A stretch of DNA of 32,000 nt from an uncultured Chloroflexia bacterium (GTDB lineage: Bacteria; Chloroflexota; Ktedonobacteria; Ktedonobacterales; JADMIN01), in contig CAVRAI010000014.1 in NCBI GenBank assembly GCA_963718915.1, positions 60,001 to 92,000 on the forward strand. The letters are read 5' to 3'. The stretch's first letter is position 1, and each line of letters begins with the position of its first letter. Below are positions 397 through 23,760 of the stretch, one piece after another. The translations under genes and the position numbers were made by a program. The notes under the pieces are model-generated. The model saw only the letters and a list, made by a program, of their open reading frames with translations. It was not told the DNA's origin and ran no database searches.

Positions 397-948
397 TTAT
401 GAACGGACAGGCCCAGTAGTAAGAGGAAACGTCGAGATGGTTCCCATCACATCGAGGCGCACCATATCGCCTTCCACCTGGTAATCCCAGGGTGGCTCGA
501 CGAAGGTTGTCCAGAGCTTGTTGGCCTGGGTATCCCACGCGGCCAGTTCCAGTTCGGCGGACATCACTATTGTCTCGCCATGGCGCTGCCAGTCGTGGAA
601 GCCAGTATCGGCGCCATCTTCCCATAACCGTAGAGGCTGTTTCAGGTCATAGGCCAGGAGGCGATCTCCGGCCCCAACGAAGAGAATGTGTGTCTCTGGC
701 ACAAGCAGAATACCGGGGTGAGAGCCTGCCCAATGGTTTGGCCAATAACGCTGGATGACGCGAAGAAACGGCCAGTCAAGTCCTTTTTGTACCGCGAGAT
801 AGAAGACGTCCCAGTCGGTGTGTTCGAGGCCAAACTCCTCTGAGAGCGCCGCGGGCGGACCGTAATACTCAGGAATACTTTCCGTCATCCTCACGACATA
901 GTCGGATAGCGTCACCTGGATCACTATGTCGCCTACTTTCTTACTCAT
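397..948 (-). CDS. hypothetical Trp-rich protein (about 183 aa), last gene of the left-hand cluster
   Basis: ORF 397..972. I prefer the ATG at 948 (MSKKVGD...) because plus-strand tcat at 945-948 gives an ATGA overlap with the GNAT stop. No family recognised. Visibly lower G+C than its neighbours. Confidence 0.55.
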   Translation of the reverse strand: MSKKVGDIVIQVTLSDYVVRMTESIPEYYGPPAALSEEFGLEHTDWDVFYLAVQKGLDWPFLRVIQRYWPNHWAGSHPGILLVPETHILFVGAGDRLLAYDLKQPLRLWEDGADTGFHDWQRHGETIVMSAELELAAWDTQANKLWTTFVEPPWDYQVEGDMVRLDVMGTISTFPLTTGPVRS

Positions 949-1808
949 CCCAGCGGCAGCAGCATCTCCCACTGGGTGTGGGGTGTCGGGCAGCCCAGCG
1001 ACAGGAGCGCGTCACCGAGCGGGTCGCCCGGCGCTACATTGATCGCCCGGAGCGGCGCGCCCGGCGTCGGGGCCATCAGCGCGCGAATTAGCGCCAGCGC
1101 ATCATCGCGGCGCGCTTCGGGGGTGGCGGCACGGGAGCCGAAATCCATGATGCTGAAGCCGAGACCAGATGGCATGTGAATCAGCGTGGCCCGGATGCCG
1201 TTCCCATCCATCAGAGCGGAGGCGTGGAGCGATGGCGCCATGTGCGCCAGTGAGGGACGATCCCGCTGCCATGGCGGCGGCGGCTGATGGAGCGCGGTGA
1301 AGTCGGCCAGCGCCTGCTCGACGGTGACATCCTCTACCGAATACAGCTCTTCGGCCAGAATCGCCCCTTCGGCCAGTGGTCCGGTGAAGACCGCCAGCGA
1401 CCGCACCTCCTCGAAGCCAAGGCGGGTGTAGAGCCGCCGCGCGGGGATATTCTGCGCCAGCGCCTCTAGCTCGACGGCGGCCAACCCAAGCGTCCGCGCC
1501 TCGTTCAGCGCCGCCTCCATCAGCGGAGCCGCCTGACCGCGCCCGCGCCACTGCGGCGCAAGCCCCATCCCAGCGATCCAGCCGCGCGACCCGCGTATCG
1601 CCAGCATGACCACGCCGCTGAGCTGTCCCTGTTCATCCACCGCGACGAATGAATGATCCAGCGCGACATCGTTCACCTCGATGAGCATGCGCAATGAGTC
1701 AACGGTGTGGGTCATCGGCACAAAATAGCCTTCAAACGAGCGATTGAAGGCCTCGACGACACGCTCTGGCGCGAGCGTCTCTGCTCGCAGATAGGTCAGG
1801 GTCTCCAC
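945..1808 (-). CDS. GNAT family N-acetyltransferase (two-lobed, 287 aa)
   Basis: AcCoA-binding motif A region: VVMLAIRGSRGWIAGMGLAPQWRGRGQAAPLMEAALNEARTLG...ARRLYTRLGFEE. GTG start at 1808, 22 nt after the stop of the upstream gene. Confidence 0.75.
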   Translation of the reverse strand: METLTYLRAETLAPERVVEAFNRSFEGYFVPMTHTVDSLRMLIEVNDVALDHSFVAVDEQGQLSGVVMLAIRGSRGWIAGMGLAPQWRGRGQAAPLMEAALNEARTLGLAAVELEALAQNIPARRLYTRLGFEEVRSLAVFTGPLAEGAILAEELYSVEDVTVEQALADFTALHQPPPPWQRDRPSLAHMAPSLHASALMDGNGIRATLIHMPSGLGFSIMDFGSRAATPEARRDDALALIRALMAPTPGAPLRAINVAPGDPLGDALLSLGCPTPHTQWEMLLPLG

Positions 1809-1830
1809 AGTGGTCCTTTTTCGCGGATAA

Positions 1831-2727
1831 TTAGCCGATGATATCCAGTAAGTGCAGCGGCAGGCTCACACGCTCGCCGGTATCCAGCTCGACGGTGGCG
1901 CAGCGGGTGCGCAGTCCGGCGGCGTCCACCGCCATATGCGCGGGGACATGGCGAATCATCCCCCGCATCCCACGGCGCGCGCCAGCGGCCACGCGCACGA
2001 TGGCTCCCGGCCGGAGCAGCACCGGAGGCGGCACATATTCGCCCACCGCCAGATCAGGGCGCGAGAGCAGCACCTCTGGCCGCACATTCTGGCGCGGATG
2101 TGAGGTGCCGTTGACGAGCGCCATCTCGCCCTCGCGGCGACGGAGCAGCGTCTGCATCTCCATCTGCATCGCGGCATCCCCCAGCCCCTCGGTCAGGATG
2201 ACGACCAGCGGCCCCGGCACCGCCAGCGGAATCCGCTGTTCGAGGAATGCGCTGATATCGGCACGGGCAAAGGACTCCAGTTCCAGCGCGGAGGCGCTCG
2301 CGGCGATTACACCCATCGCGCCATGGGCCGCGGCCCGTTGCAGTAATGTCAGTGGCGCACGCTGGGGATAGACGAGGATGGCTCCGCGTGGAATCAGCGC
2401 CACCGCTGGCGATTCACCCTGTGGCAGGAAAGCCAGCGGCCCAGCGGCGCTCTCGCCCAGGCCAATCAACCCCTGCAATAGCGTCGCCACGCCCTCGATG
2501 ATGATCCCCTTGCCCGGCGTCACCGCGATGACGCGGCCATCGATGCCCGCCAGCACCGGCGCGCGCCCGTTCTGCGTGGCGATCTCGGCGATAGGTTGCA
2601 GCGCACTGACACCATCTCCGGTCTGCACGCGCACCACCGCGCCCGGAGGAATCGGCCTGCGGCGACGCACCGTGATGGATGGCGCGATTGGGCGGCCCAG
2701 CGGGTAATCCAGCGCGACGTTGCTCAC
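1831..2727 (-). CDS. hypothetical protein with an N-terminal barrel-hybrid-like segment and a C-terminal KOW/SH3-like segment
   Basis: 298-aa ORF. GTG start at 2727 overlaps the stop of the upstream ATPase gene (GTGA at 2724-2727). The N-terminus (GAVVRVQTGDGVSALQPIAEI...LAGIDGRVIAV) resembles lipoyl/hybrid barrels. The C-terminus (GAIVRVAAGARRGMRGMIRHV...VELDTGERVSLPLHLLD) is KOW-like. Domain calls are by eye only. Confidence 0.6.
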   Translation of the reverse strand: MSNVALDYPLGRPIAPSITVRRRRPIPPGAVVRVQTGDGVSALQPIAEIATQNGRAPVLAGIDGRVIAVTPGKGIIIEGVATLLQGLIGLGESAAGPLAFLPQGESPAVALIPRGAILVYPQRAPLTLLQRAAAHGAMGVIAASASALELESFARADISAFLEQRIPLAVPGPLVVILTEGLGDAAMQMEMQTLLRRREGEMALVNGTSHPRQNVRPEVLLSRPDLAVGEYVPPPVLLRPGAIVRVAAGARRGMRGMIRHVPAHMAVDAAGLRTRCATVELDTGERVSLPLHLLDIIG

Positions 2728-4538
2728 AATTCGTTCTCCCCACGAAGCGCCTTCCGCCAGGCGCGCAACTGTTGCACGCGCATCTCAGGATCGGACGGCA
2801 GGAGTAGCGGACGCCCACGGGCGTCGACAATCAGGCCGAGAACGCCTCCCTCGACCGGCTCGCTCGACCGCGCGTGCTGGCCCGGCCCCAGGCCAATATC
2901 CACATTCGGCGCTGGATAGAGCGAGAGCAGCACGCGGTCGCCGGGAGCCACCGGCAGCCGCACGAGCGTGCCACTGGCAATCTCCGCCTCCTCCTGCCGC
3001 CCATCCAGAAATTCCATCACAACGCGCAGCGCCAGTTGGCCCTCAGGCGCGTCGCCATGGATCGAGATGGCGGAGCCGAGCAACAGCGGCACGGCGTCGG
3101 TGCTGGAAAGCGCCGCCGCGATATCGGGCGAGACCATCGCCAGGTTGCCGATCATACCAGCAATCTGCGCGCTATCGAGCACCAGCGAGGTGATGCCCCG
3201 TGGCTGGAGGCCATCCAGCAGGACTAGCGCGGCGTCGGCGGGATGGGCGACATGCGCCAGCACGCCCCCCGTGCCGAGCACGATATCCATCGGGTGCAGG
3301 CCCGCCATCCGGGTGCCGGGCGCGTGCATCGCCAGCCGGATGGCTTCGCGGGCGAGCGCATACTGGATTTCGAGCGCGAGTGGTGTCGCTGGCAGCAGAC
3401 GCGGGCGCAGCATGTGAGTCAGGACGTATTCGCGCAGATCATCCTCATCGATCGGCGCGGCGATCCAGCGGAGGATGCTGTCGATGCCCACAGCGCGCGC
3501 CAACTGTGCGCTGCCCGCGCCAACGCCCGCCGTCGGATGCACCGCGGGCAAAAACTCACCCTTGGCGGTGGCTCCGGCCAGTTCGGTCGAGCTCGCGCCG
3601 ACATCCACCGCGACGACATTCATCTGAAAATGATGCGCCAGGAAACGCGCCACACCACCCAGCGAGGTCACCGTGGCCAGCGGGGGCGTCGCCACCATAC
3701 GACGTAATGCCGCGTATCCGGGCGCCTCGCGCAGCACACAACTCTCGTAGAGCGCGCTCACGGCTCGTGTCAGGGGCGCCAGCGTCGACGGCGAGAGCGC
3801 CTCGACACTCTGCGCGTTCGTGCGCCCTTGTAGCGTCGTGGCGACGACCTGCGCGTCAGACGGCGCGCCGCTGAAAATGACTGGGAGGCCCGGCGGACGC
3901 GGGTAGGAGACATCCATCGGGGTTGGCTGGAGCATATCAATTGCTCGCACGACTGACTGCGCGGTGTTGGCAATCGCGTTGCCGGGCAGCTGCGTTGGCG
4001 ATCCAACAATCAACGCCGCATGCGGCTGAATCGCGCGCAGACTCGCGGCGAGGCGGTGCAGGTCGCTCTCGGAGAGCGGCGCATCGGGTGGTGGCAGTTG
4101 GATCGTCTCGAGCTGGATGAACAGTCCGCTGAGCGCGCGCTGTAAGAGCATCGCCAGCGATTCGCGTCCAGGCCCAAGCGTCATCAGGCGCATTGGCCCC
4201 CCGGCGCTCGATACCAGCACGGCGAGGTCTACCCCTGCGCCATCCTCATCCTCAGGCTGAATTGGCTGGCCCGCGCGCATCAGGATGCGGCCGGTGATCC
4301 GCTCGATCTCACCCATGGCGTTGCGCACGCCGAGCATGATATCGGCCTGGGGCGCGGCGAGCGTCGTGGGAACGCTGACGCTCGCCAGCATCCGGTAGCG
4401 ACTCTCCACCAGGCCCACCAGCGCCGCCTTGGTAAAAGCTGACCCGCAATCAAGCAGCAGCAGCGAACGCGCGGCGCCCGGCTGACGACCGCGCCCAGCA
4501 TCCGGCGACTGCGTCGCATTACTCGTGGCGCCCAACAC
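2724..4538 (-). CDS. GlmL/MutL-like ASKHA (actin-fold) ATPase, 604 aa, with a C-terminal extension
   Basis: Phosphate-1 motif LLLLDCGSAFTKAALVG, phosphate-2 motif VVAVDVGASSTELAG and adenosine motif IVLGTGGVLAH, as in the glutamate mutase L (GlmL) family. AAGGAGG lies 5 nt upstream of the GTG at 4538. Confidence 0.75.
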   Translation of the reverse strand: MLGATSNATQSPDAGRGRQPGAARSLLLLDCGSAFTKAALVGLVESRYRMLASVSVPTTLAAPQADIMLGVRNAMGEIERITGRILMRAGQPIQPEDEDGAGVDLAVLVSSAGGPMRLMTLGPGRESLAMLLQRALSGLFIQLETIQLPPPDAPLSESDLHRLAASLRAIQPHAALIVGSPTQLPGNAIANTAQSVVRAIDMLQPTPMDVSYPRPPGLPVIFSGAPSDAQVVATTLQGRTNAQSVEALSPSTLAPLTRAVSALYESCVLREAPGYAALRRMVATPPLATVTSLGGVARFLAHHFQMNVVAVDVGASSTELAGATAKGEFLPAVHPTAGVGAGSAQLARAVGIDSILRWIAAPIDEDDLREYVLTHMLRPRLLPATPLALEIQYALAREAIRLAMHAPGTRMAGLHPMDIVLGTGGVLAHVAHPADAALVLLDGLQPRGITSLVLDSAQIAGMIGNLAMVSPDIAAALSSTDAVPLLLGSAISIHGDAPEGQLALRVVMEFLDGRQEEAEIASGTLVRLPVAPGDRVLLSLYPAPNVDIGLGPGQHARSSEPVEGGVLGLIVDARGRPLLLPSDPEMRVQQLRAWRKALRGENEL

Positions 4539-4555
4539 GCTCGCCTCCTTGTCGC

Positions 4556-6250
4556 CTAGCCGCGTCTCAAGAACCCGAAGAACCCACCCTTGCGCTTCTT
4601 CGGCGCCTGTGCCGGTTGCTGGCGGGTCGGTTGTTGTCGGCCTCGGCGCGATGTCTCATAGCCGTCGCGGGCATCTCGCGCGGCCCGTGATCGCCCTGTC
4701 TGGCCCTCGGGCATCCGCCCGCGCTGTCCGGGTTGTCCGGGTTGTCCGGGTTGCCCGCGATGCCCATTCCGGCCGTTCTGAGCGCCATAGTCGCCATAGT
4801 CTTCGTAGGCTTGAGGGTCATTAAGGTCATTGTAGCCATCATTGCCACCGTAGCCGTTATACCCGTTCCGGCCGTTGTCGGCTCTGCCCTGGCGTCCGGA
4901 TGGATGGGCCGCATGGTCGCCCTGGCCATATCCCCCTTGAGACTCTTCACGGAGCCACCCTGGTTTCTCTCTCTCGCCCAGCGGTCGCGCCGCCTGTTGT
5001 TTGCGCGATGCCGCGCCGCGATTGGCGGTTCCGGCCTGCGACGCGCCAAAGTCGCGCTCAGCGGCCGGGTTCGCGACAGGTGGCGCCGGTACCCGGCTGG
5101 TGCGCTCGCGCGCGAGGTTGTTGTCTGGCGCCTGTGCCTCATTGCCACGCACCCATCCTGGCAGCATGGAGGGGTCGATCAAATCGGAGGCTGACCATCC
5201 CGGCTGCGCTGCCGCGCCAGCGGCAGACTGCGGCATACCGCCTTGCCGGGGGACGCCCGCCTGTCCCTGATTCCGCATCCATTCGGGGAGCGCGCTGGGG
5301 TCGACAAGCTGGTTGGCGGAGAACCCCGGCTGACCATTCATCGGAACAGGCGCCTGCTGCTGCATTGGCCTCTGCATTGGTGTCTGCATTGGTGTCTGCA
5401 TCGGCATCCCCGCGTACCCCGCTGGCGGGATGGCGTTCCCGACGGGGACAGCGGGGTATCCGCCCCAGCCTGGCGCGGCGGGGGGCGGTGGCGCGGCGAC
5501 TGGCGCCTGCGCGGGAGACGCTGGCTCATTGCGCATCCACCCCGGCAGAGCGGCCTCATCCACCAGCGATTGGGCGCGCATACCCTCGCCTCCACGCATG
5601 CCGTCGGGCGCTACCTGTCCCTGCTGGCCACCAAGCCAGGTAGGCAGGGCATTGGGATCGAGCAGCGAACTGGCGGGCATGCCACCACCAGCGAGCGGTC
5701 CCTGATAACTGCCCGCGTTCTCGATGGACGGGAATGCGTTGGCGTCGGGCCGTTGAACTGGCGGTTCCTGCGCCGGGGCGGGCGCGTAGCCACCGTATGC
5801 GCCATTGCCACCATAGCCCGGCGCGGGTGGCTGATTGGCAGGGGGATATGCGGGAGGATATGCGGGAGGATATGCGGGAGGATATGCCTGCTGGGGAGGG
5901 TAGCCCGGCGCTCCCGGTGTTCCGGGAATCGGCTGACGCTGTGTCGGCTGCGCCGAGTCCGCTGAGGCCTGGCGGAGCCAGTCGGGCAGCGCCTCCTCAC
6001 TCACAAGCTCGTTCACCGAGAAGCCCGGTCGCGCGGCTGGCTGTCCCGGCCCATACCCCGGCGCTGGTTGCTGGTACTGCTGAGGCGCCTGCGCTGGTTG
6101 CGGCGGCGCCTGATAGCCCCAGGCAGCGGCTGTTCCATCATAGCCGTTGGCCTGATACTGCTGGGCGGGTGGCGCGAATCGCTGGCCGCAACGCGGACAC
6201 GCTGGGACGGGAGCTTGAAGCGGCTGGCCACAACGCGGACAAGTTGTCAC
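4556..6250 (-). CDS. zinc-ribbon protein with a long Pro/Gln/Gly/Tyr-rich disordered region, repeated ALPxW(L/M)R motifs and a basic amphipathic C-terminus
   Basis: N-terminus is MTTCPRCGQPLQAPVPACPRCGQ (2 x CxxC). GAGGAG lies 5 nt upstream of the GTG at 6250. Has 5-6 copies of L(V/I/L)(D/S)xx(A/M)LPxW(L/M/V)(R/G) and ends in KKRKGGFFGFLRRG. Confidence 0.75.
   Translation of the reverse strand: MTTCPRCGQPLQAPVPACPRCGQRFAPPAQQYQANGYDGTAAAWGYQAPPQPAQAPQQYQQPAPGYGPGQPAARPGFSVNELVSEEALPDWLRQASADSAQPTQRQPIPGTPGAPGYPPQQAYPPAYPPAYPPAYPPANQPPAPGYGGNGAYGGYAPAPAQEPPVQRPDANAFPSIENAGSYQGPLAGGGMPASSLLDPNALPTWLGGQQGQVAPDGMRGGEGMRAQSLVDEAALPGWMRNEPASPAQAPVAAPPPPAAPGWGGYPAVPVGNAIPPAGYAGMPMQTPMQTPMQRPMQQQAPVPMNGQPGFSANQLVDPSALPEWMRNQGQAGVPRQGGMPQSAAGAAAQPGWSASDLIDPSMLPGWVRGNEAQAPDNNLARERTSRVPAPPVANPAAERDFGASQAGTANRGAASRKQQAARPLGEREKPGWLREESQGGYGQGDHAAHPSGRQGRADNGRNGYNGYGGNDGYNDLNDPQAYEDYGDYGAQNGRNGHRGQPGQPGQPGQRGRMPEGQTGRSRAARDARDGYETSRRGRQQPTRQQPAQAPKKRKGGFFGFLRRG
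4724..4757. repeat. in-frame 9-bp tandem repeat (ttgtccggg, about 3.7 units) encoding (GQP)n
   Basis: Read directly: ctgtccggg ttgtccggg ttgtccggg ttgcccg. Lies inside CDS 4556..6250. Confidence 0.9.
5360..5407. repeat. in-frame 12-bp tandem repeat (ctgcattggtgt, 4 units) encoding (MQTP)n
   Basis: Read directly: ctgcattggcct ctgcattggtgt ctgcattggtgt ctgcatcggcat. Confidence 0.9.
5844..5888. repeat. in-frame 12-bp tandem repeat (ggatatgcggga, about 3.75 units) encoding (PPAY)n
   Basis: Read directly: ggatatgcggga x3 followed by ggatatgcc. Confidence 0.9.
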
Positions 6251-6834
6251 GATACTCCTCGATTCAATAGGGCAGCGCCTGCGTGACCATCATCGTGCGA
6301 AGGGCGGCCAGTGCTAGTGGGTTATCTTTTGTGCTCTTAAACCAACAATAATTGCGATGTTCAGAATCCCCGGTGCGAGAATGTATCTCAGGCCGTGCGC
6401 CAGTGTATCACTCACGCCGTAGCCCCGCAACCCGACAGCCCTTTTGTAGCAGTGGCAATCTTCGGTCGGATCGTCGTGGGACATTCCCCTAAGCCATTGT
6501 ATCCGCTTGACACGCCAGATAGCCATCTCAGGGCGAAATTGTGACTCCCCTCATACTACGCAAGCAACGAAGCGTGCTGCCATTATGATGCCATATCTTA
6601 TTCTGCGTGGCAAGCTAGCGATACGTACCGCAAGCGGAATTCGTCAGAACTTCCAGGGTCTGCTACGCAATTTGGTACGTGCGCAAACGCTCCTTGTCTG
6701 GTACGATTACATCGAGCAAGAGAGCGTGGACGGCTCTACCTCCTTTTTCGGCTGTGCGGCGGCGTCTCGCCACGTATGGCAATGACTGTATCGTGAGCCG
6801 CCGCTCACCCTTGCCGTCGAGAGGGGGCACATCC

Positions 6835-7176
6835 ATGGCACGACGAAAGCAAGCTGTTGAGGTCGCCGCGGAGACGGAACCCGAGCAACCAAAACGACGC
6901 CGCGGACCACGCGCGGGATCAGAGAACGCGCGCCGTGGCGGCATGGCCGTCCGGGAGAAGTATGGGCCTGAGTTCTTCGCCAGGATTGGCTCGAAGGGCG
7001 GTCGTACTGTCCGCGAGCGGCGCGGTCCAGAATTTTACGCGAATATTGGGCGGCTTGGAGGCCAGACAACCCGTGATACGCTTGGTGTCGAACACTACGA
7101 GCGGATTGGTCGGATGGGCGGTCTGCGGGCGCGTCGGCGCGAGCGGGACGCGCAAGAGGCGGGCAAGTCTGAGTAG
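6835..7176 (+). CDS. KGG-repeat general stress protein (GsiB/Con-10-like)
   Basis: Three repeats of G(P/V)E(F/H)(F/Y)xxIGxxGG: YGPEFFARIGSKGG, RGPEFYANIGRLGG, LGVEHYERIGRMGG. The ATG at 6835 is preceded by gagaggggg. The longer ORF from 6679 has an implausible N-terminus. Confidence 0.75.
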   Translation: MARRKQAVEVAAETEPEQPKRRRGPRAGSENARRGGMAVREKYGPEFFARIGSKGGRTVRERRGPEFYANIGRLGGQTTRDTLGVEHYERIGRMGGLRARRRERDAQEAGKSE

Positions 7177-7290
7177 GTGTTTGTCACGATGGAGCGCGTT
7201 CCATATCCATTGACCGGAGCGCTGTCGCGTTCAAGGTCAACTGGCTGCACGTGGTTGTAGGTTTAAATCAGGTAAAGCAGATCGATATCC

Positions 7291-7316
7291 GCCGACATCC
7301 CGCGAAGGATGTCGGC
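7291..7316. terminator. 10-bp perfect hairpin between convergent genes (candidate bidirectional terminator)
   Basis: gccgacatcc-cgcgaa-ggatgtcggc followed by attgtgttg on the plus strand. It lies between the KGG gene stop (7176) and the monooxygenase stop (7354). Confidence 0.45.
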
Positions 7317-7353
7317 ATTGTGTTGCTCGTCGTCTATTCCAGCCAAGTGGATC

Positions 7354-8667
7354 CTATCGTTGTGGCGCGGGCATGGCGGCTGAGGATACTGGATACTCCT
7401 TCAGCGTCACGGCGTTCGCCGACTTCTCGACCCCACTGGACATCAGCGCCTTGAGCGGCCAGTGCTCCATCATACGCATGACCTGATTGACCATCCACGC
7501 CTGCGTGCGCGACCTCGGCAACAGGAAGCCCTGTGCGCCGTCGGCGAACTTCTGGGCCTGCCTGACCGCTTCGTCCAGTTCGCACTGGTATCGGGCATAT
7601 GCGGCGGTGTAGTCGCCGCCAGCGGTCGCCAGTTCTCCCGCCAGCGTATACGCGCCCACCAGCGCCAGACTCGTCCCCATCCCAGACATCGGCGAGGGGC
7701 AGTAGGCGGCGTCTCCCAGCAGCGCCACCCGTCCGCTCGACCAGCGCTCCATGCGCACCTGGGCAACCTGGTCAAAGTAGAACTCGGGCGCGCTCCACAT
7801 TGCTTCGAGTAACCGGGGAATCTCCCATCCTTCTCCGGCGAATGTCTCCGCCAGGAGCTGCTTCTGCCGTGCGCTATCATGGCGATCAACGCGCAGATGC
7901 GGCATGGCAAAGTAGAACATGGCGCGCACTTCGGTGTTTTCCCGCACCGGATATAATCCAACGCTCTTGCCAGGCGCGCGCCGAGTTCCAGGCATCCGGT
8001 AGAACAGTTCCCAGCCATCGAGGTGATACGCATTGGGGGCGCTGAAGATGGCAACATAGCAGCCCATGTCGCGGGTGAATCGCGCCTCATCGCCGAACGC
8101 CAGCCTGCGCACGTTGGAGTGGAGGCCATCGGCGCCTATGACGAGATCGAAGGTGCGTGGCGTCCCGTGCTCGAAGGCCACATGCGCACCCTCGTCGTCC
8201 TGCCTGATGCTGGTGATGGAGTCGTCGAAGAGATACTCGACGTCGTTGCGCGTCGCCTCGTAGAGGATGCGTACCAGATCGCCGCGTAGAATCTCGATCT
8301 CGGCAATCAGGCCACCTGAGCCGTTCATGGTATCGGACCCCATGCTTACCAGCCGTTTGCCCGCGCTGTTGACCACAGACATGCCGTGCGTTCCAGTATG
8401 CGCCCGTTTGATGTCGTCCGTGATCCCCATACGCTCGACGACGACGCGGGCGGTTCCACGCAGGTCAATCGCCTGGCCGCCGCTGCGTGGCGCTGGCGCG
8501 CGCTCGACGATGGTGACGTTGAAACCGTAGTGGCGCAGCCAGTAGGCCAGCGCTGGCCCGGCGACACTCGCGCCGGAAATGAGGATGTTGCGTCGTGGTC
8601 TCCATAGTAGTCGATCTCCTCGCTGATGCTCGTCAATGCTCGTCGCGATATTGCACAAACGTGTCAC
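7354..8667 (-). CDS. FAD-dependent monooxygenase (group A flavin aromatic hydroxylase type)
   Basis: Dinucleotide-binding N-terminus NILISGASVAGPALAYWLRHYGFNVTIVERAP, plus DLVIGADGLHSNVRR and GRVALLGDAAYCPSPMSGMG motifs. The start is uncertain: GTG 8667 and TTG 8658 both lie inside operator 1. Confidence 0.8.
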   Translation of the reverse strand: MTRLCNIATSIDEHQRGDRLLWRPRRNILISGASVAGPALAYWLRHYGFNVTIVERAPAPRSGGQAIDLRGTARVVVERMGITDDIKRAHTGTHGMSVVNSAGKRLVSMGSDTMNGSGGLIAEIEILRGDLVRILYEATRNDVEYLFDDSITSIRQDDEGAHVAFEHGTPRTFDLVIGADGLHSNVRRLAFGDEARFTRDMGCYVAIFSAPNAYHLDGWELFYRMPGTRRAPGKSVGLYPVRENTEVRAMFYFAMPHLRVDRHDSARQKQLLAETFAGEGWEIPRLLEAMWSAPEFYFDQVAQVRMERWSSGRVALLGDAAYCPSPMSGMGTSLALVGAYTLAGELATAGGDYTAAYARYQCELDEAVRQAQKFADGAQGFLLPRSRTQAWMVNQVMRMMEHWPLKALMSSGVEKSANAVTLKEYPVSSAAMPAPQR

Positions 8668-9661: not shown

Positions 9662-10105
9662 ATGGCCTACACGGTTCTTGAATGCTTGCCGGAGCTTGCC
9701 GACACCGCCGCCTTCTGCGAGTATTACCATGTCGCGCTCGACCAGTCCGCGAACACGATTCTGGTGGCATCGCGAAAAGTCGAGCCAACCAGATATGCCA
9801 TATGCGTCGTCCTCGCCACGACCCGATTAGATGTCAATCAGAAGGTCTGCGAGCTGTTAGACGTGAGGAAGGCGTCCTTTGCCAATGCGGAAACGACGAT
9901 GCAACGCACCAGCATGCTGATTGGTGGCGTCACCGCGATTGGCGTCTCCGATATGCCCATCTATCTCGATAGCGCCGTCATGCAGCCGGAGCAAGTGGTC
10001 ATGGGCGGCGGCAACCGCTCCAGTAAGATTCTCCTCGATCCACAGGAGCTGCTGAAGCTGCCCAATATAGAGGTCATCGAAGGGCTAGCCAGGCCAAAGG
10101 AATGA
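9662..10105 (+). CDS. YbaK/ProX-type aminoacyl-tRNA trans-editing deacylase domain protein
   Basis: 147 aa. The MLIGGVTAIGVSDMPIYLDSAV...VVMGGGNRSSKILLDPQEL pattern is typical of the YbaK/EbsC fold. Confidence 0.75.
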   Translation: MAYTVLECLPELADTAAFCEYYHVALDQSANTILVASRKVEPTRYAICVVLATTRLDVNQKVCELLDVRKASFANAETTMQRTSMLIGGVTAIGVSDMPIYLDSAVMQPEQVVMGGGNRSSKILLDPQELLKLPNIEVIEGLARPKE

Positions 10106-12168: not shown

Positions 12169-12987
12169 CTACACTGGCAGGCGCGTCATCACAAAGGCGG
12201 GCAGCTGGCGGATCGTCCACATGATGGGTCGCCAGTAGCCCGGCACGTAGGCCACGGCACGCCCGCGTTCGGCGGCGGAGACGATATGGCGCGCGGCCTC
12301 CTCGGGCGAGATGGTGGCCCGCGCGGGCAGCTTCAACGCGGCAGTCATCGGCGTGGCGACGTAGCCCGGCTTGACCGTGACCACCCGCACCCCGCTCCCC
12401 TTGAGACGATAGCGCAGCGATTCCAGCCAGGTGGTCAGCGCCGCCTTCGACGCCTGATAGGCGCTGTTGCCGCGCCGCCCGCGCTCGCCCGCCACCGACG
12501 ATACTCCGACCAGCGTGCCGCTCCCCCGCGCCGTGAACAGGTCGGCGGCCAGCCCCAGCCAGCGCATCGCGCCGATGGTATTCGTTTCGAGCATAGCGCG
12601 CTCGTCCTCGAACGGCCAGTCGCCCGTCGCGCTATCCGGCGGAGGCATGATACCCGCAGTATAGACGACCATCTGGAGCATCTGCCCTCCCAGATCGGTC
12701 ACAATCTGGCGCAGCAGAGCGGGCGCGGCATCGTAGTCGCGCACATCATGGGCATAGGCGCGGGCGCACTCGCGGCCAGCGGCATCGTTGAGATCGCCAC
12801 ACAAGCTGGCCAGTTTATCCTCATTCCGCGCCACCAGCGCTAGCGTGTAACCCCGGTGCGCCAGCTCGCGGGCCACCGCCGCGCCGATGCCGCTGGAGGC
12901 GCCAATCACCAGCGCGCCGCGCCCTGATGCGTCGGCTGGTACGGGCAGCGTTGGCAGCGTTGGCTGCGTCATAGGGTGGTCCGTCAT
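12169..12987 (-). CDS. DprE2-like short-chain dehydrogenase/reductase
   Basis: Cofactor motif GASSGIG and catalytic region SSVAGERGRRGNSAYQASKAAL (YxxxK). The tail YVPGYWRPIMWTIRQLPAFVMTRLPV resembles, from memory, the Rv3791 tail ...[21 protein letters not shown]. The ATG at 12987 overlaps the nuoN stop (ATGA at 12984-12987). An alternative ATG is at 12972. Confidence 0.8.
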   Translation of the reverse strand: MTDHPMTQPTLPTLPVPADASGRGALVIGASSGIGAAVARELAHRGYTLALVARNEDKLASLCGDLNDAAGRECARAYAHDVRDYDAAPALLRQIVTDLGGQMLQMVVYTAGIMPPPDSATGDWPFEDERAMLETNTIGAMRWLGLAADLFTARGSGTLVGVSSVAGERGRRGNSAYQASKAALTTWLESLRYRLKGSGVRVVTVKPGYVATPMTAALKLPARATISPEEAARHIVSAAERGRAVAYVPGYWRPIMWTIRQLPAFVMTRLPV

Positions 12988-14618
12988 TTGATGAGCGTCT
13001 GCGCTGCCATGAGCGCCCAGTTCACCAGTTGCATCGGCACAATGCCCAGCGCGAGCGTGAGGATGCCCGCCAGCCCCAGGCCGATCCAGGTGACGGGATG
13101 CACTGGCGCAGGCTCCGCCGAGAGCACTTTCTGTGCGGTGGCGACACTGATGGCGGTTGCTGGCTCGGCGACGGCGACGCCGCCCGCAGAGGTTGTCACG
13201 ACCGGCTCACTGGCCGGGGCAGGCTCATCAGCTGTTACCAGCAGTGGCGCGGTGGCTGGCTCGATGAAGTACATTGCCCAGATGACACGCAGGTAGTAGT
13301 ACATGCCAAGCAGGCTGGCCAGCACGCCGATGATTGCTAACTCGACATGCGCGCCCTGCATCGCCGCGTAGAAGACGTACCACTTGCCGATAAAGCCCGC
13401 CGTCGCGGGAATGCCCGCCAGCCCCAGCATGAAGACCGCCATCAGCGCCGCCAGCGCCGGATTGCGGCGACTTAGCCCAGCGAAATCGTCCAGCGTCGTC
13501 CCCTGGCCATCGCGCCGCTCTATCGCCAGCACCACGCCGAACGCGCCGAGATTCATCACGGCATAGGTCGCCAGATAGATCAGCAGGGCCTGCAAGGATG
13601 CCTGCGTATGGGTGGCGATGGTCACCATCATGTAGCCAGCGTTCGCCACGCTCGAATACGCCAGCATCCGCTTGACATCGCGCTGGGTCACCGCCAGCAG
13701 GTTGCCGCCAACCATCGTCAGTATGGCGACGGTCCAGAAGACTGGCTCCCACTCTGGCCGGAGCGACGAGAGCGCGAAGAGAAAGACCCGCGCCAGTCCG
13801 ACGAACGCCGCGACCTTGGTGCCGACCGACATGAACGCCGTCACCGAGGTCGGCGCGCCGACGTAGACATCCGGTGTCCATGCCTGGAACGGGATCGCCG
13901 ATACCTTGAAGCAGAAGCCGACCGCCATCAGTCCCAGCGCCACCAGCAACAGCGGCCCAAACCCGGAGCCAAGTGGCGAGTCGCGATGGCTGCTCAGGAA
14001 GGCGCGAATCGCGGTGAGGTTGGTTGAGCCGGTCGCGCCATAGGTGAGCGCCATGCCATAGAGCAGGAACGCGGATGCGAACGAGCTGAGGATGAAATAC
14101 TTCATGCCCGCTTCCTGCGAGCGGCGCCGGGTGGTGATGATGGCCGAAAGGACGTAAAGGGCCAGCGAAAGCACCTCCAGCCCGATGAAGAGAATCATCA
14201 GGTTGCTGGCGGCGGACATCAGCATCATGCCCAACGCGGCCAGCAGCATCAGCGTGTAATATTCGCCCTCGTGAACAATGCCCTGACGTTCGAGATAGCC
14301 CGGCGAGAAGAGCAACGCGACGCCCACCGCGAAGAGGATGACGACATTGGCGAAGAGCGCGACACGGTCGTCGTTGACCATGCCAAAGAAGGCGTCGCCA
14401 TTGGTTCCATCCATCCAGAGCATCACCGTGGCGAAGAGCGCGCCGCCGACTCCCGCCAGCCCAATCACCGCCAGCCAGCCTTTGCGCCCGGGCACGGCGA
14501 CCAGATCGGCGAGCAGCGTCAGCAGACCCGCGACCAGTATTATCAGCTCTGGCCAGATGTGCAGCCAGTCGGTGAAGTCAGGGGTAAACGTGAATGGTGA
14601 AATAACCGCAATCGTCAT
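12984..14618 (-). CDS. nuoN: NADH-quinone oxidoreductase subunit N
   Basis: Polytopic antiporter-like subunit at the last position of the nuo order. ATGA overlap with the nuoM stop at 14615-14618. Confidence 0.92.
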   Translation of the reverse strand: MTIAVISPFTFTPDFTDWLHIWPELIILVAGLLTLLADLVAVPGRKGWLAVIGLAGVGGALFATVMLWMDGTNGDAFFGMVNDDRVALFANVVILFAVGVALLFSPGYLERQGIVHEGEYYTLMLLAALGMMLMSAASNLMILFIGLEVLSLALYVLSAIITTRRRSQEAGMKYFILSSFASAFLLYGMALTYGATGSTNLTAIRAFLSSHRDSPLGSGFGPLLLVALGLMAVGFCFKVSAIPFQAWTPDVYVGAPTSVTAFMSVGTKVAAFVGLARVFLFALSSLRPEWEPVFWTVAILTMVGGNLLAVTQRDVKRMLAYSSVANAGYMMVTIATHTQASLQALLIYLATYAVMNLGAFGVVLAIERRDGQGTTLDDFAGLSRRNPALAALMAVFMLGLAGIPATAGFIGKWYVFYAAMQGAHVELAIIGVLASLLGMYYYLRVIWAMYFIEPATAPLLVTADEPAPASEPVVTTSAGGVAVAEPATAISVATAQKVLSAEPAPVHPVTWIGLGLAGILTLALGIVPMQLVNWALMAAQTLIK

Positions 14619-16267
14619 GCGCTGACCCCCGCATCTTCTCTCTCGCTCGACACCAGTGGGCGCGCCACCTCTAGCTCATACGCACGATTCATTCGCGCCT
14701 CAGCGATTTCCCGCGTGCTGATGGTATGGATGCCCATGCCCAGTGGCCCGCCCGCACTCGTGTGATACTGGCTCAGAATTTCGCCGACGGGCCGCTCCAT
14801 GGGCCTGGTGAGCACGTTCGGCACGAACCCCAGGAAGAAGATCAGTGCGAGCAGCGGCAGCAGTGGCAACCACTCGCCCATACGCAGGTCAGCCGCCTTC
14901 TTCGCGCTGGCGACCGCGTTCGCGCTGCCCTCGGCAGCAGGAGCTATACCCTCCATCGCGCCCTGGAAGAACCGGAGCATATACCACGCCGCTGGGATGA
15001 CGACCAGCGTCCCCAGCACGCCGAAGAGCGTACTTGACTGGAAGGTTCCCAGGAAGGCCAGGAACTCGCCCGCGAAACTGTTGAGGCCTGGCAGACCCAG
15101 CGCCGACATCGCCGCGATCATAAAGACGGCGGCCAGCCAGGGGAGCTTCGTCGCCAGCGCGCCAAAATCCGCCAGCCGCCGCGTGCCTGTGCGCGTCTCG
15201 ATGGCGCCCGCGATCAGGAAGAGCGCTGCGATGACGATGCCGTGGTTGACCATCTGGACGACGGCGCCCTCCACGCCCTGGATGTTGAGCGCGAAGATGC
15301 CCAGCACGATCACGCCCAGGTGGCTGATGCTGACATAGGCTAGCAGCTTGATGAAGTCGAGCGCGACCAGCGCCTGTAGCGCGAAGTAAAGGATGCTGAC
15401 GACAGCCAGCGTCTCCATCAGCGGGGTCAGCGTATGCACCGCCTGCGGGAAGAGCGGCAGGCAGAAGCGGACGAAGCCATAGACGCCCGTCTTGGCCATG
15501 ACGCCCGCGATGAGCACGACCACCGGGATCGGCGACTGGCTATAGGCGTCGGGCACCCAGCCGTGCAGCGGGAAGAGACCGGTCTTGACGGCGAAGGCGG
15601 CGGCGAACGCCAGGAAGAGCAGCACCTGGGGATGGTCGGGCACGCCCGCGTTGAGCAGCGCCGAGAGATCGAGGTTGAAGGCGGTTCCGTGCGCGTCGCT
15701 GACGGCGATGCCCGTGGCGATGATGCCAACGAGCATCAGCAGTGAGCCAGCGCTGGTATAGAGCACAAACTTGATGGCGGCGTCACCGCGCCGTGGTCCA
15801 CCGAACATGCCCAGCAGCAGGTAGGCAGGCACCAGCATCACTTCCCAGAAGACGTAGAAGAGGAAGAGATTGGTCGCCAGAAAGACGCCCTGCATGCCGA
15901 AGCTGAAGAGCAGCATCAGCGTGAAATACTGGCGCGACCGGTCGCCCGCCCGCGCGATGTTGAACGACGCGCCAACGGCAATCAGCGTCAGCAGCGCGTT
16001 GAGGCTGAGCAGGTAGAGGTTGATGCCATCGGCGCTCACGGTGTAGTTGATGCCCGTGCCGGGCAGCCAGGGCGCGTGCTCGGTGATCGCCAGCATGCGG
16101 GAGCCGTCGAGGCCCAGACGCGGAATCAGCGCGAGGGCGAGCGCCAGATCCACCAGCGCCGCCAGCAGCGCCCAGCCCCAGCCGACCAGCCGTGGCAGGA
16201 GCAGCGCGCCGATGGCGCCGACGAGCGGCACGAAGAGAATTGCGCTCAACACCGGAAAGTTTGACAT
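14615..16267 (-). CDS. nuoM: NADH-quinone oxidoreductase subunit M
   Basis: Antiporter-like subunit (FYVFWEVMLVPAYLLLG, HGWVPDAY) in the expected operon position. Confidence 0.92.
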   Translation of the reverse strand: MSNFPVLSAILFVPLVGAIGALLLPRLVGWGWALLAALVDLALALALIPRLGLDGSRMLAITEHAPWLPGTGINYTVSADGINLYLLSLNALLTLIAVGASFNIARAGDRSRQYFTLMLLFSFGMQGVFLATNLFLFYVFWEVMLVPAYLLLGMFGGPRRGDAAIKFVLYTSAGSLLMLVGIIATGIAVSDAHGTAFNLDLSALLNAGVPDHPQVLLFLAFAAAFAVKTGLFPLHGWVPDAYSQSPIPVVVLIAGVMAKTGVYGFVRFCLPLFPQAVHTLTPLMETLAVVSILYFALQALVALDFIKLLAYVSISHLGVIVLGIFALNIQGVEGAVVQMVNHGIVIAALFLIAGAIETRTGTRRLADFGALATKLPWLAAVFMIAAMSALGLPGLNSFAGEFLAFLGTFQSSTLFGVLGTLVVIPAAWYMLRFFQGAMEGIAPAAEGSANAVASAKKAADLRMGEWLPLLPLLALIFFLGFVPNVLTRPMERPVGEILSQYHTSAGGPLGMGIHTISTREIAEARMNRAYELEVARPLVSSEREDAGVSA

Positions 16268-16274
16268 AGACCTC

Positions 16275-16303
16275 TATCCAGACCGTTCCCACTCATGGGT
16301 GGA
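16275..16303. repeat. 29-bp direct repeat, left copy (pseudo-copy of the nuoL 3' end just upstream of the nuoM start)
   Basis: tatccagaccgttcccactcatgggtgga matches 16415-16443 at 27 of 29 positions, 140 bp away. Confidence 0.9.
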
Positions 16304-16322
16304 TTGTTTTTCAGCAACGTGT

Positions 16323-16394
16323 CGGAGCCTGAAGGCTCCGGCGAATTCCGCCTCCGATGATTAGCCGCGGCATTGATGCCGCCGACAGCCCGCC
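16323..16394. repeat. multi-hairpin dispersed repeat, copy C (nuoL-nuoM spacer)
   Basis: Reads cggagcc-tgaa-ggctccg, then gcgaatt, then gccgcggca-ttga-tgccgccgac, then agcccgcc. Collinear with copy D. Confidence 0.75.
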
Positions 16395-16414
16395 AATTCC
16401 GCAAACGGTTTTCG

Positions 16415-16443
16415 TATCCAGACTGTTCCTACTCATGGGTGGA
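16415..16443. repeat. 29-bp direct repeat, right copy (contains the real nuoL stop codon and last codons)
   Basis: tatccagactgttcctactcatgggtgga. The tca at 16433-16435 is the nuoL stop. Confidence 0.9.
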
Positions 16444-18412
16444 CGACGAAATACACCAGGATGAGCGCGGCGCCGACGAAGATCGCCAGCGCATAGTTGC
16501 GCGCGTAGCCAGTCTGCAGACGGCGCAGACCCTTGCTCATGCCGCCGACGAGCTGTCCCAGTCCGCGTGATCCCCGCCCGAAGAGGCCCTCTTCGAGTCC
16601 AATGCGCCAGAGCACGCCGATGGACATCACTGGCACGACAAAGACCGCGTCGTAGAGTTCGTCAATGTAATACTTGTGCTGCAGGAGCGCCACCAGCGGA
16701 TTGCGCGACGGGGCGAAACGTGGCTGGCGTCGCCCGTAGAGCGCCCAGGCAATCGCGATGCCGATGGGGCCAGTCACCAGGCCGATAGCGGTTCCTGACC
16801 AGAACAACCCGCTGCCAGTTGGGACGCCCATGTTCACGGTATACGTCGATGGTTCGAGGAATTTGCCAATCGCGTCGTTCCAGGGTGTGCCGTAGAAGCC
16901 GCCAATGACCGAGAGGACGCCCAGCACGATCATCGGGACCATCATCGTCGCGCCGACCTCGCGCACGTTCCGTAGCGGATCGCGCGCGTCACCCTGAGCG
17001 CCATGTTCACCGTGCGCGCCATGTGCGTCGTGCATGGCAACGGGTTCGCCGCGATACGTTCCGAGGAAGACGCCGAAGATCAGGCGGAAGATGTAGTAGC
17101 CCGTCAGGACGGCGGTAAACAGCCCCACGCCGTAGAGTACGTACCAGCCCGTGCCACCACCTGTCCGCGCGCGTTCCAGCACGACGCTGAGGATGCCATC
17201 TTTGCTCCAGAAGCCGGAGAGCGGGAAGACGGCGGCCAGCGCCAGCCCACCGACGACGAAGAGCCAGAACGTGCGTGGCAGCTTCTCGCGCAGCCCGCCC
17301 ATCTTGCGCAAATCCTGCTCGCCAGCCAGCGCGTGAATTACCGCGCCCGCCGCCATGAAGAGCAGCGCCTTGAAGTAGGCGTGGGTCGTCAGGTGGAAGA
17401 TGCCGCTGGAGAAGCCGCCCGCCGCCTCGCCCATGAACATGTAGCCCAACTGGCTCATCGTCGAATAGGCCAGCACGCGCTTGATATCCATCTGGACACA
17501 GGCGATGGTCGCGGCGAAGAGAGCAGTTGCCCCGCCGACGATGCCGACAACCGCCAGCGCGGTCGGCGACTGAGTATAGAGTCCCGACATGCGCGCCACC
17601 AGATAGACGCCCGCCGTCACCATCGTCGCCGCGTGGATCAGCGCGCTGACCGGCGTTGGACCTTCCATCGCGTCGGGCAGCCAGACGTGCAGCGGCAACT
17701 GCGCCGATTTGGCCGCCGCCGCGACGAAGAGCAGCAGCGCGATGGCGGTGATAGTGTTCGGATCGGGTCCATGGAGCGGTGTTGAAATAGCGGGACCGAC
17801 AAAGATTGGACTGTATTGCAGCGTGCCAAAGGTCTTGAAGATCAGGAAGATAGCGAGGAGCAGCCCAAAGTCGCCGATGACGTTGACGACGAAGGCTTTG
17901 CGCGCGGCGGCCACCGCCGAGGGGCGCGTATACCAGAAGCCGATCAGCAGGAACGACGCCAGGCCGACGCCGCCCCAGCCGACGAGCAGCATCAGGAAGT
18001 TATCCGCCGCGACTAATAGGGCCATGGTGAAGATGAAGAGGTTGAGGAAGGAGAAGAAGCGCCAGTAGCCGGGGTCGTCCGCCATATAGCCGATGGAGTA
18101 GACGTGGATGAGGAAGCCGACGCCTGTCACGATCAGCAGCATCACCGCCGAGAGCGGGTCGGAGAGCAGGCCGAACGGAATCTTCAGGCTGCCGGATATG
18201 ACCCAGGTCCACGGCATCATATCGGAGAAGCGCGCATTGGGCGCGACGCCGAGCATCGAGATGAAATCGGCGACGGCCAGCGCGAACGCCGCCAGCACCA
18301 CCCCGCAGCCAATCAGCGAGATGGCCATACGCGGCAGCGCGCGCCCGAAGAGTCCGAGCGCGACGAAGCCCGCCAGCGGCAGGAGCAGGATGAACGGCGT
18401 CAGGTTTAACAT
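16433..18412 (-). CDS. nuoL: NADH-quinone oxidoreductase subunit L
   Basis: 659-aa antiporter-like subunit with the long C-terminal region typical of NuoL. Follows nuoK with a 1-nt gap. Confidence 0.93.
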   Translation of the reverse strand: MLNLTPFILLLPLAGFVALGLFGRALPRMAISLIGCGVVLAAFALAVADFISMLGVAPNARFSDMMPWTWVISGSLKIPFGLLSDPLSAVMLLIVTGVGFLIHVYSIGYMADDPGYWRFFSFLNLFIFTMALLVAADNFLMLLVGWGGVGLASFLLIGFWYTRPSAVAAARKAFVVNVIGDFGLLLAIFLIFKTFGTLQYSPIFVGPAISTPLHGPDPNTITAIALLLFVAAAAKSAQLPLHVWLPDAMEGPTPVSALIHAATMVTAGVYLVARMSGLYTQSPTALAVVGIVGGATALFAATIACVQMDIKRVLAYSTMSQLGYMFMGEAAGGFSSGIFHLTTHAYFKALLFMAAGAVIHALAGEQDLRKMGGLREKLPRTFWLFVVGGLALAAVFPLSGFWSKDGILSVVLERARTGGGTGWYVLYGVGLFTAVLTGYYIFRLIFGVFLGTYRGEPVAMHDAHGAHGEHGAQGDARDPLRNVREVGATMMVPMIVLGVLSVIGGFYGTPWNDAIGKFLEPSTYTVNMGVPTGSGLFWSGTAIGLVTGPIGIAIAWALYGRRQPRFAPSRNPLVALLQHKYYIDELYDAVFVVPVMSIGVLWRIGLEEGLFGRGSRGLGQLVGGMSKGLRRLQTGYARNYALAIFVGAALILVYFVVHP

Positions 18413-18413
18413 A

Positions 18414-18713
18414 CTAGCCCTTCAGCGTATTCAGCTCGTCCACGTCAATCTCGTGGCGCGCGCGGAAGATCGAGACGATGATCGCCAGCCCCACCACCAC
18501 TTCGGCGGCGGCGACCGTCAGCACCAGGAAGACGAACATCCAGCCGTCTACCGAGTTCAGGAAGTGCGCGAAGGCCATGAACGACAGGTTGACGGCGTTG
18601 AGCATCAGCTCGATGGACATGAACATCACCAGCGGGTTGCGGCGCACCAGCACGCCTATCGCGCCGATGGTGAAGAGCAAGGCGCTCACGATGAGATACG
18701 CGGTGACTGGCAT
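18414..18713 (-). CDS. nuoK: NADH-quinone oxidoreductase subunit K
   Basis: 99 aa with three TM helices and the conserved ELMLNAVNL segment. Confidence 0.93.
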
Positions 18714-18726
18714 GGTAAGCTCCCTC

Positions 18727-19263: not shown

Positions 19264-19269
19264 GCGCGC

Positions 19270-19941: not shown

Positions 19942-19986
19942 GGGTATTCTCGCTATCTATCTCGTGAAGCCGATAAGGCATGCCCA

Positions 19987-20054: not shown

Positions 20055-20094
20055 TTAAATACTGACTCGTATGTCGACTACCACTTCGCGGCGT

Positions 20095-23684: not shown

Positions 23685-23760
23685 GACCTGTTTTCTTCCC
23701 GCTTGCCACACGTCCCCATCGGTTGCTTATGCCTGGCTCAATTCCTGGCTCATACTCGGC

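Follow-up and report, generated by a model that had tools for sequence, protein, structure and literature searches.

A conserved module of an actin-fold ATPase, a partner protein and a Trp-motif scaffold in Ktedonobacterales, with relatives in other phyla and a possible function at the membrane

The window analysed here, a stretch of 32,000 nucleotides (nt) from an uncultured Chloroflexia bacterium placed in Ktedonobacterales (contig CAVRAI010000014.1, positions 60,001 to 92,000), carries on its minus strand five co-directional open reading frames (ORFs) at the coordinates given in a preliminary description that had been made from the letters alone. In the direction of reading they encode a Zn-ribbon protein with repeated Trp motifs, hereafter the scaffold (564 amino acids, aa; 4556-6250), an actin-fold ATPase (604 aa; 2724-4538), a protein that we call P3 (298 aa; 1831-2727), a GNAT acetyltransferase (287 aa; 945-1808) and a small protein called P5 (183 aa from its ATG, 397-948; the longest ORF starts at GTG 972). 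Window coordinates below refer to the minus strand unless another is given. All junctions were re-read on the reverse strand and agreed with the coupling signals described earlier. The scaffold stop codon TAG (4558-4556) is followed by a 17-nt junction (4539-4555) holding AAGGAGG (4550-4544) and a 5-nt spacer before the ATPase start GTG at 4538; the ATPase stop overlaps the P3 start as GTGA (2727-2724), a 22-nt gap (1830-1809) separates P3 from the GTG of the GNAT gene at 1808, and the GNAT stop overlaps the P5 start as ATGA (948-945). No terminator-like site was found between the five genes, and a weak promoter-like site was present upstream of the scaffold gene (6613-6585).

A genome scan with an alignment of the ATPase provided 55 loci (L001-L055), of which 36 were Ktedonobacterales-like and the rest belonged to Chloroflexia, Anaerolineae, other Chloroflexota, Bacillota and Cloacimonadota. 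Thalassoroseus pseudoceratinae (Planctomycetota; L056), a Phycisphaerales genome (L057) and a further Bacillota locus (L058) were added later, giving 58 loci in five phyla. The proteins of the window were compared with these loci by tblastn, and P3 and the ATPase also by alignment-built profiles. The closest homologues of the ATPase were found in Ktedonobacterales. Of the 51 loci with enough sequence for a judgement, 50 had a P3 homologue, either as the next gene after the ATPase or within the same ORF; these loci represented Ktedonobacteria, Chloroflexia, Anaerolineae, other Chloroflexota, Bacillota and Cloacimonadota, and the 4-nt stop/start overlap between both genes recurred in 15 of the 35 Ktedonobacterales loci having the two of them. 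Four Cloacimonadota loci (L048, L051, L054, and L055) encode ATPase and P3 as one protein of 972-1062 aa, and a fusion of 1003 aa annotated as 'glutamate mutase L' occurs in Ozemobacteraceae. The N-terminus of the L054 fusion (9725-10000, plus strand) bears an extra Zn_ribbon_2 domain (PF12674, 26.6 bits), a second and independent link between a Zn-ribbon and the ATPase. The pair was encountered as well in Thalassoroseus, in a Phycisphaerales genome and in another Bacillota genome.

The conservation of the two last genes was different. The GNAT protein reached 56.1 bits against the Pfam family Acetyltransf_1 (threshold 20.7), which bears out its earlier assignment as an acetyltransferase, and no specific equivalog was reached in NCBIfam. 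Its gene was located 14-79 nt past P3 in 15 of the 31 evaluable Ktedonobacterales loci and in no locus outside that order, so that it is an optional accessory restricted to Ktedonobacterales. For P5, tblastn gave no homologue in the 55 loci, not even in genomes with a 94-95% identical ATPase, and no family match was found in Pfam, NCBIfam or PADLOC. The GC content of its gene was 55.6%, with 62.5% at third codon positions (GC3) vs. 78-79% for the ATPase, P3, and GNAT genes. In the closest genomes the slot occupied by P5, between the GNAT gene and a methyltransferase, is taken instead by a DUF2283 gene of opposite orientation; the slot looks like a variable insertion site, and P5 like an unrelated recent insertion. 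P5 lies outside the module, which, judging by conservation, does not need it even if the gene may well be co-transcribed. The arrangement exceeds chance for the scaffold, ATPase and P3 genes, as conservation across phyla and gene fusions show, and not for the fifth gene. The five-gene unit proposed in the preliminary description is accordingly reduced to scaffold, ATPase and P3; joint conservation of neighbours applies to these three, and fails for P5 (none of 55 loci). The descriptions given there for the products agreed with Pfam results, composition and fold matches, P5 being the one without a family match.

The ATPase exceeded the gathering threshold of the broad Pfam family MutL over most of the profile (PF13941; 119.6 bits vs. 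a threshold of 27; residues 27-479, profile positions 2-447 of 450), and its AlphaFold2 (AF2) model had a predicted local distance difference test score (pLDDT) of 84.7 and a predicted template modelling score (pTM) of 0.84. The ASKHA signature, taken as phosphate-1 DxGxxxTK, phosphate-2 DxGxxxT, an adenosine GG, and a two-lobed fold, was intact, with D30, G32, T36, D312, G314, T318, G424, and G425 conserved and ASKHA proteins filling the Foldseek list. The phosphate-1 motif D30-C-G-S-A-F-T-K37 corresponds to 4428-4451 (G32 and T36 invariant across phyla), phosphate-2 D312-V-G-A-S-S-T318 to 3585-3605 (D312 and G314 invariant) and the adenosine motif G424-G425 to 3264-3269 (G424 invariant). The product had been described as an orphan ASKHA ATPase of the GlmL type; the type was confirmed by the family match and the complete signature, and the term orphan has to be abandoned, since the protein is a member of a large clade that has an obligate partner, P3, of which 1,878 representatives exist at 50% identity.

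Beyond the MutL region the ATPase continues into a clade-specific beta-rich domain with a terminal helix (residues 481-604; 2727-3098), delimited by the AF2 model and the ends of the profiles; it comprises 125 residues past the 450-position Pfam MutL and the 459-position NCBIfam GlmL profiles. A motif in this domain, D572-A-R-G-R-P577 (2808-2825), emerged from the cross-phylum alignment and is kept as DxRGR(P) in ATPases of Chloroflexota, Bacillota, and Planctomycetota. The top Foldseek matches were the ASKHA subunits of acetophenone carboxylase, acetone carboxylase and N-methylhydantoinase (E 5e-11 to 5e-8; template modelling (TM) score around 0.3), and FtsA, PilM, acetate kinase, Hsc70/DnaK, and DdrA appeared further down the list. 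Searching the PDB with a sequence profile of the ATPase gave no match at E ≤ 1, so that no solved structure is a relative by sequence at that limit. The Pfam scan of the ATPase likewise returned no FtsA, SHS2_FTSA, PilM_2 or MreB family at E ≤ 1 and no HSP70 match; Pfam Hydantoinase_A matched weakly the Cloacimonadota homologue.

P3 was modelled with a pLDDT of 79 as a protein of three parts: an N-terminal barrel-sandwich hybrid similar to lipoyl domains (about 2428-2688), a central alpha/beta domain that weakly resembles the protease-associated domain of ZNRF3 (about 2065-2379) and a C-terminal KOW-like domain (about 1834-2010). The barrel-hybrid-like and KOW-like ends had been pointed out previously, and weak sequence and fold matches now support both of them. 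In the comparison of the P3 profile with the PDB all matches were weak ones to lipoyl and KOW domains, the E2p lipoyl domain being reached at E 4.5e-6. The modifiable Lys of lipoyl and biotinyl carriers is not present in P3, where the equivalent stretch reads ATQNGRAP; lacking a Lys at the tip of the hairpin, the N-terminus would be a structural barrel-sandwich hybrid. An enzymatic nature of P3 was considered and discarded: residues invariant across phyla are nearly all Gly or Pro, with no obvious catalytic residues among them. This makes a structural or adaptor role likelier and suggests that P3 is an adaptor rather than an enzyme. A relationship with NqrA/RnfC-like subunits was also rejected, as marginal matches were confined to the N-terminal barrel (RnfC_N; E 0.003-0.15) and the rest of the protein was unmatched. 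With a planctomycete P3 of 375 aa as reference, all 8,000 of 8,000 scored candidates matched at E ≤ 1e-5; the best 120 of them were mostly 375 aa long and 60-65% identical to the reference, and the named organisms were Planctomycetota. No source searched gives a name to members of the P3 family, and no NCBIfam cut-off was reached by P3, the scaffold, the membrane proteins described below or the distant homologues. Given the adjacency and in-frame fusions of the two genes across loci, ATPase and P3 very probably form a complex.

The scaffold has 56% of P, A, G, and Q among its residues and contains a long disordered region with a Gly/Tyr/Gln-rich low-complexity stretch. Its N-terminus carries a Zn-ribbon (residues 4-23, CPRCG...CPRCG; 6182-6241) scoring 24.5 bits with Pfam Zn_ribbon_3, just below the cut-off of 27, and the four Cys are kept in orthologues. 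A motif search identified five Trp motifs, NELVSEEALPDWLRQA (5966-6013), SSLLDPNALPTWLGGQ (5624-5671), QSLVDEAALPGWMRNE (5525-5572), NQLVDPSALPEWMRNQ (5267-5314), and SDLIDPSMLPGWVRGN (5141-5188), as well as a degenerate sixth one, KPGWLRE (4946-4966). The consensus from 236 instances in 33 Ktedonobacterales scaffolds was S-L-[IV]-D-[EP]-x-A-L-P-x-W-[LM]-R; conservation extended to positions outside the search pattern (L at -6 in 65% of instances, D at -4 in 63%, A at -1 in 58%, and R at +5 in 62%). The motif occurred at 8-13 per 1000 aa in scaffolds vs. a background of 0.37 when six-frame ORFs from all loci were counted. Wherever Ktedonobacterales loci included upstream sequence, and also in Anaerolineae and L049, exactly one ORF per locus had at least three Trp motifs (4 to 16 copies), and this ORF was always upstream of the ATPase and co-directional with it. 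No Trp motif was detected in the Bacillota, Cloacimonadota or L044-47 loci, and outside Chloroflexota it was found in Planctomycetota. The 122-aa protein encoded just upstream of the Thalassoroseus cluster starts with a single copy, MKPRIPDWLRHAF, and Anaerolineae scaffolds start with ...LPDWLRGH, which together indicate that the motif predates the split of the phyla and was multiplied in Chloroflexota.

At its C-terminus the scaffold ends in a basic-aromatic tail, KKRKGGFFGFLRRG (4559-4600), recognized by its conserved pattern and presumed to target the membrane. The pattern [KR]n-G-[WF]-x-x-[FL]-F-G-R-[KR] was found at the C-terminus in 31 of the 33 Ktedonobacterales tails listed, in forms such as KKRKGGFFGFLRRG, RRGWRRFFGRK, and GGWLGFLRRGKR; the exceptions were an ORF split in two (L004) and the related variant GVFAK[IL]KRVLGFGR (L030/L032). 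Scaffolds of Anaerolineae and Chloroflexia display, instead of this tail, a globular domain between two transmembrane helices, and the ATPases of Anaerolineae and L049 carry one to three motifs of the RRRGLFGRR type in a C-terminal extension. An anchor placed on the scaffold in some lineages and on the ATPase in others is what would be expected if both proteins act together at the membrane. The Zn-ribbon score, the composition and the conserved tail are in agreement with the earlier account of a disordered Zn-ribbon protein with repeated motifs and a membrane-targeting-like end.

Other genes occur at or near the scaffold position in some loci. In the Bacillota locus L058 the region upstream of the ATPase (6656-7966, plus strand) encodes a 436-aa protein rich in Gly, Gln, Ser, and Tyr with about four repeats of around 90 aa, whose unit reads (QY/AY)G(Y/-)(S/G)QTQDIGTTRSEQ(I/M)MQ..GMGG(M/I)SQ(V/A)MQADRNVGSG; it is a disordered repeat-motif protein in the position of the scaffold, and its motif is unrelated to the Trp motif. 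A ParA/MinD-like ATPase (Pfam AAA_31, CbiA) is encoded upstream of the scaffold in 12 Ktedonobacterales loci (L011, L013-L015, L020, L025, L026, and L036 among them), seven of which have an unannotated and co-directional gene for a 150-aa protein between it and the scaffold; neither gene was found in the window.

The family name of the ATPase raises the question of glutamate mutase. GlmL/MutL has been described as a chaperone that reactivates this enzyme and is encoded with GlmS and GlmE (PMC4682846). The ATPase of the window is flanked by the scaffold and P3, not by glmS and glmE, and scored 29.5 bits with the NCBIfam GlmL model NF040745, far from its cut-off of 475, and 21.6 bits with its ornithine-pathway relative NF040744 (cut-off 600); no match to the GlmL family TIGR01319 was obtained at E ≤ 1. 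Neither glmS, glmE nor any other vitamin B12 enzyme was found among the large ORFs scanned in the 32-kb window, no B12-binding or GlmE domain was detected in sister loci past the window edge, and no B12 enzyme lay beside the ATPase-P3 pair in the 58 loci of five phyla. The earlier statements that the GlmL name does not describe the role of this gene, and that glmS and glmE are missing, therefore hold, the latter also just outside the window, as judged from sister genomes and conserved neighbours.

The rest of the window encodes a flavin adenine dinucleotide (FAD)-linked oxidase, a complex I operon, an FAD monooxygenase and a LEA/KGG-type protein, and past its edge sister genomes have a glyoxalase-methyltransferase, LysR, DUF6909, a response regulator, and transposases. 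The complex I (nuo) operon (12984-26994) comprises, according to Pfam, three Proton_antipo_M genes (nuoN/M/L-like) and further along nuoH, nuoG, nuoF, and nuoD; its membrane-subunit genes fall where the AT skew is strongly positive, at 13-19 kb. The stress-type protein with LEA_5/KGG repeats (6679-7176, plus strand) is divergent from the scaffold gene, and tblastn located it at the same position in many Ktedonobacterales loci.

In the two planctomycete loci (L056 and L057) the genes of the MutL-like ATPase and P3 are followed by those of a DUF6754 protein and three more proteins, and these four match membrane proteins encoded around the pair in Anaerolineae, L037, and L049. The shared set consists of the DUF6754 protein, two polytopic proteins and the part of the Chloroflexota scaffold in which a domain lies between two transmembrane helices. 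The surroundings of the pair in other phyla also include housekeeping genes: in L057 the eight-gene cluster is directly followed by rpmF (L32) and plsX (15950-16610, plus strand), and in the Bacillota locus L058 the pair lies two genes upstream of whiA. Downstream of the module, three Anaerolineae loci (L041, L042, and L050) have a STAND/AAA_16 ATPase fused to a winged helix of the OmpR type (14482-15867 in L041 and 14329-15705 in L050, plus strand) and then a large PAS histidine kinase, with one ORF call on the opposite strand in between in L041 and L042.

The reading that we prefer, to which we give a probability of about one half, is that the locus is the Ktedonobacterales form of a widespread and previously undescribed module in which an ATPase-P3 complex is docked at the membrane through Trp motifs. 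Its core would be the ATP-binding protein of actin/Hsp70 fold in complex with the always-adjacent P3. The tail of the scaffold would bind the inner face of the membrane, and its five or six 12-residue Trp motifs, S-L-[IV]-D-x-x-A-L-P-x-W-L-R, would gather several ATPase-P3 complexes there, docking on them as FtsA binds the C-terminal peptide of FtsZ and PilM the N-terminal peptide of PilN; the docking surface might be the ATPase, its beta domain, P3 or another receptor. Binding and hydrolysis of the nucleotide would switch the complex between states. Since the pair is encoded with four integral membrane proteins in Planctomycetota and Anaerolineae, it would most likely act as the cytoplasmic engine or regulator of a membrane-embedded machine, possibly for envelope, division or transport. 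The membrane-associated arrangement of scaffold, ATPase and partner proposed in the preliminary description is favoured by joint conservation, by the fusions and by a tail present on either scaffold or ATPase; its extension to the GNAT protein and P5 is not.

Several observations weigh against this proposal. The four membrane proteins were absent within 10 kb of the pair in all 36 Ktedonobacterales loci, and the use of the module may differ in this lineage. Nor is the scaffold universal, the Bacillota and Cloacimonadota loci having no Trp-motif protein, and L049, with scaffold and ATPase and no adjacent P3, is the sole exception among the 51 loci mentioned above. The fold matches of ATPase and P3 had low TM-scores (0.2-0.44) and thus establish the superfamily alone. 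The resemblances that we presume between Trp motif and FtsZ C-terminal peptide, and between the scaffold tail and the membrane-targeting amphipathic helices of MinD and FtsA, should be taken as leads and not as results.

Other explanations accommodate part of the same data. The ATPase could be a polymerising actin-like protein forming a membrane-anchored cytoskeletal or division filament similar to those of FtsA or MreB. FtsA and PilM were among its best fold matches, and the scaffold combines a membrane-targeting-like tail with multivalent hydrophobic-P-x-aromatic-hydrophobic-basic motifs, a pattern which we take to be that of the FtsZ peptide. Nevertheless, the closest relatives by sequence and fold belong to the hydantoinase/GlmL branch, in which no member is known to polymerise, Pfam gave no FtsA, MreB or PilM match at E ≤ 1, and FtsZ is expected in most Chloroflexota carrying the module; these points make a filament rather unlikely. 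It could matter most in Planctomycetota, where P3 is very strongly conserved and which have been reported to lack ftsA and ftsZ (PMC8871954). A speculative extension of the preferred reading, which we consider unlikely, is that the pair, the Trp-motif protein and the four membrane proteins constitute the core of an ancient trans-envelope machine for division or envelope growth, common to Planctomycetota, Chloroflexota, Cloacimonadota, and some Bacillota, with the multivalent disordered scaffold of Ktedonobacterales replacing the membrane subunits. Given that its P3 component is very widespread and 60-65% identical in the FtsZ- and FtsA-less Planctomycetota, such a machine could belong to the long-sought division apparatus of that phylum. 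Still less credit is given to an Hsp70-like chaperone system. In it the ASKHA core would play the part of the nucleotide-binding domain of Hsp70, the beta domain that of the substrate-binding domain and the helix that of the lid; the Trp motifs would resemble client peptides, and the ATPase would act on the disordered scaffold, remodelling it for instance as a condensate, instead of serving a membrane machine. The domain order of the AF2 model fits with it, full-length Hsc70, DnaK, and Hsp110 were aligned by Foldseek over 620-700 columns, the scaffold joins a Zn-ribbon to a low-complexity region rich in Gly, Tyr, and Gln, and the Bacillota locus has an unrelated disordered repeat-rich protein upstream of the ATPase. 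However, TM-scores to Hsc70 and DnaK were 0.21-0.25, Pfam gave no HSP70 match, no J-domain or GrpE-like partner was present in the loci, and the membrane-protein neighbours conserved in two phyla would be left unexplained.

It is very unlikely that all five genes work as one functional operon with GNAT and P5 as integral parts, the former acetylating, for example, ATPase or scaffold. The close spacing and stop/start overlaps throughout, with no terminator-like site in between, and the position of GNAT 14-79 nt downstream of P3 in 15 loci would be compatible with such a unit; against it, P5 has no homologue in related loci, its slot is occupied by DUF2283 in the other orientation in genomes with a 94-95% identical ATPase, its GC3 (62.5%) departs from the 78-79% of its neighbours, and GNAT is missing from 16 of the 31 Ktedonobacterales loci and from all other phyla. 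The least probable explanation is a classical reactivase of the GlmL type for a B12 enzyme encoded elsewhere in the genome, either glutamate mutase or an aminomutase, with P3 as a small Rossmann-like subunit similar to DdrB. Membership of the ATPase in Pfam MutL, the chaperone role described for MutL/GlmL on glutamate mutase (PMC4682846), the presence of DdrA among fold matches, and the central alpha/beta domain of P3 speak for it. The scores of 29.5 vs. 475 for GlmL and 21.6 vs. 600 for the ornithine-pathway relative, the lack of a B12 enzyme beside the pair in any of 58 loci, the additional C-terminal domain and the obligate partner, both missing from canonical GlmL profiles, and conserved neighbours that are membrane proteins and a disordered scaffold, not enzymes, make it the weakest of the three alternatives formed by reactivase, filament and Hsp70-like remodeller.

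Thousands of these proteins are labelled 'glutamate mutase L' or 'hypothetical protein' in databases, a label that is wrong for a whole clade. This clade is set apart by an obligate partner, a C-terminal domain and a conserved short linear motif of its own, to which two phyla add four dedicated membrane proteins. Its spread and the strong conservation in Planctomycetota suggest that the module probably performs a basic, still unnamed cellular task. The scaffold, in turn, offers a clear case in bacteria of a disordered protein built as a multivalent scaffold of short motifs, and the defined partners make binding, membrane recruitment and ATP dependence directly testable.

Regarding known systems, no literature on the module was found in searches on MutL/GlmL, actin-like proteins, the divisome, the motif strings, and DUF6754, no entry describing it was found in Pfam, NCBIfam or PADLOC, and the PADLOC defence models matched neither the five proteins nor two distant homologues; the earlier failure to assign the cluster to a described system was thus reproduced. 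With GlmL/MutL the ATPase shares PF13941 (positions 2-447 of 450) and the ASKHA nucleotide-binding signature, whereas it differs in lacking flanking glmS/glmE and in having the DxRGRP C-terminal domain and P3 as obligate partner. Hydantoinase A and the ASKHA subunits of acetone and acetophenone carboxylases, its best Foldseek matches, are in contrast soluble enzymes of metabolism and have a hydantoinase B or a carboxylase as partner, none of which is encoded here. DdrA-DdrB likewise combines a large ASKHA subunit, DdrA being among the fold matches, with a small partner containing an alpha/beta domain; no dehydratase or B12 enzyme is found in the present context, however, and DdrB is devoid of the barrel-hybrid and KOW-like domains of P3. 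FtsA and PilM have the ASKHA fold in common with the ATPase and are among its best structural matches, and the use of short conserved peptides on a partner and of a basic-amphipathic tail as membrane link may be shared by analogy; the peptide of the PilM-PilN system is at the extreme N-terminus, as is the motif in the planctomycete and Anaerolineae Trp-motif proteins. In contrast to FtsA and PilM, the ATPase is not a member of their sequence families, the Trp motif is repeated 4-16 times in a disordered scaffold, and P3 and the C-terminal beta domain of the ATPase have no counterpart in those systems. The ATPase superfamily and the precedents for the docking logic are known, and what is undescribed is the module as a whole.

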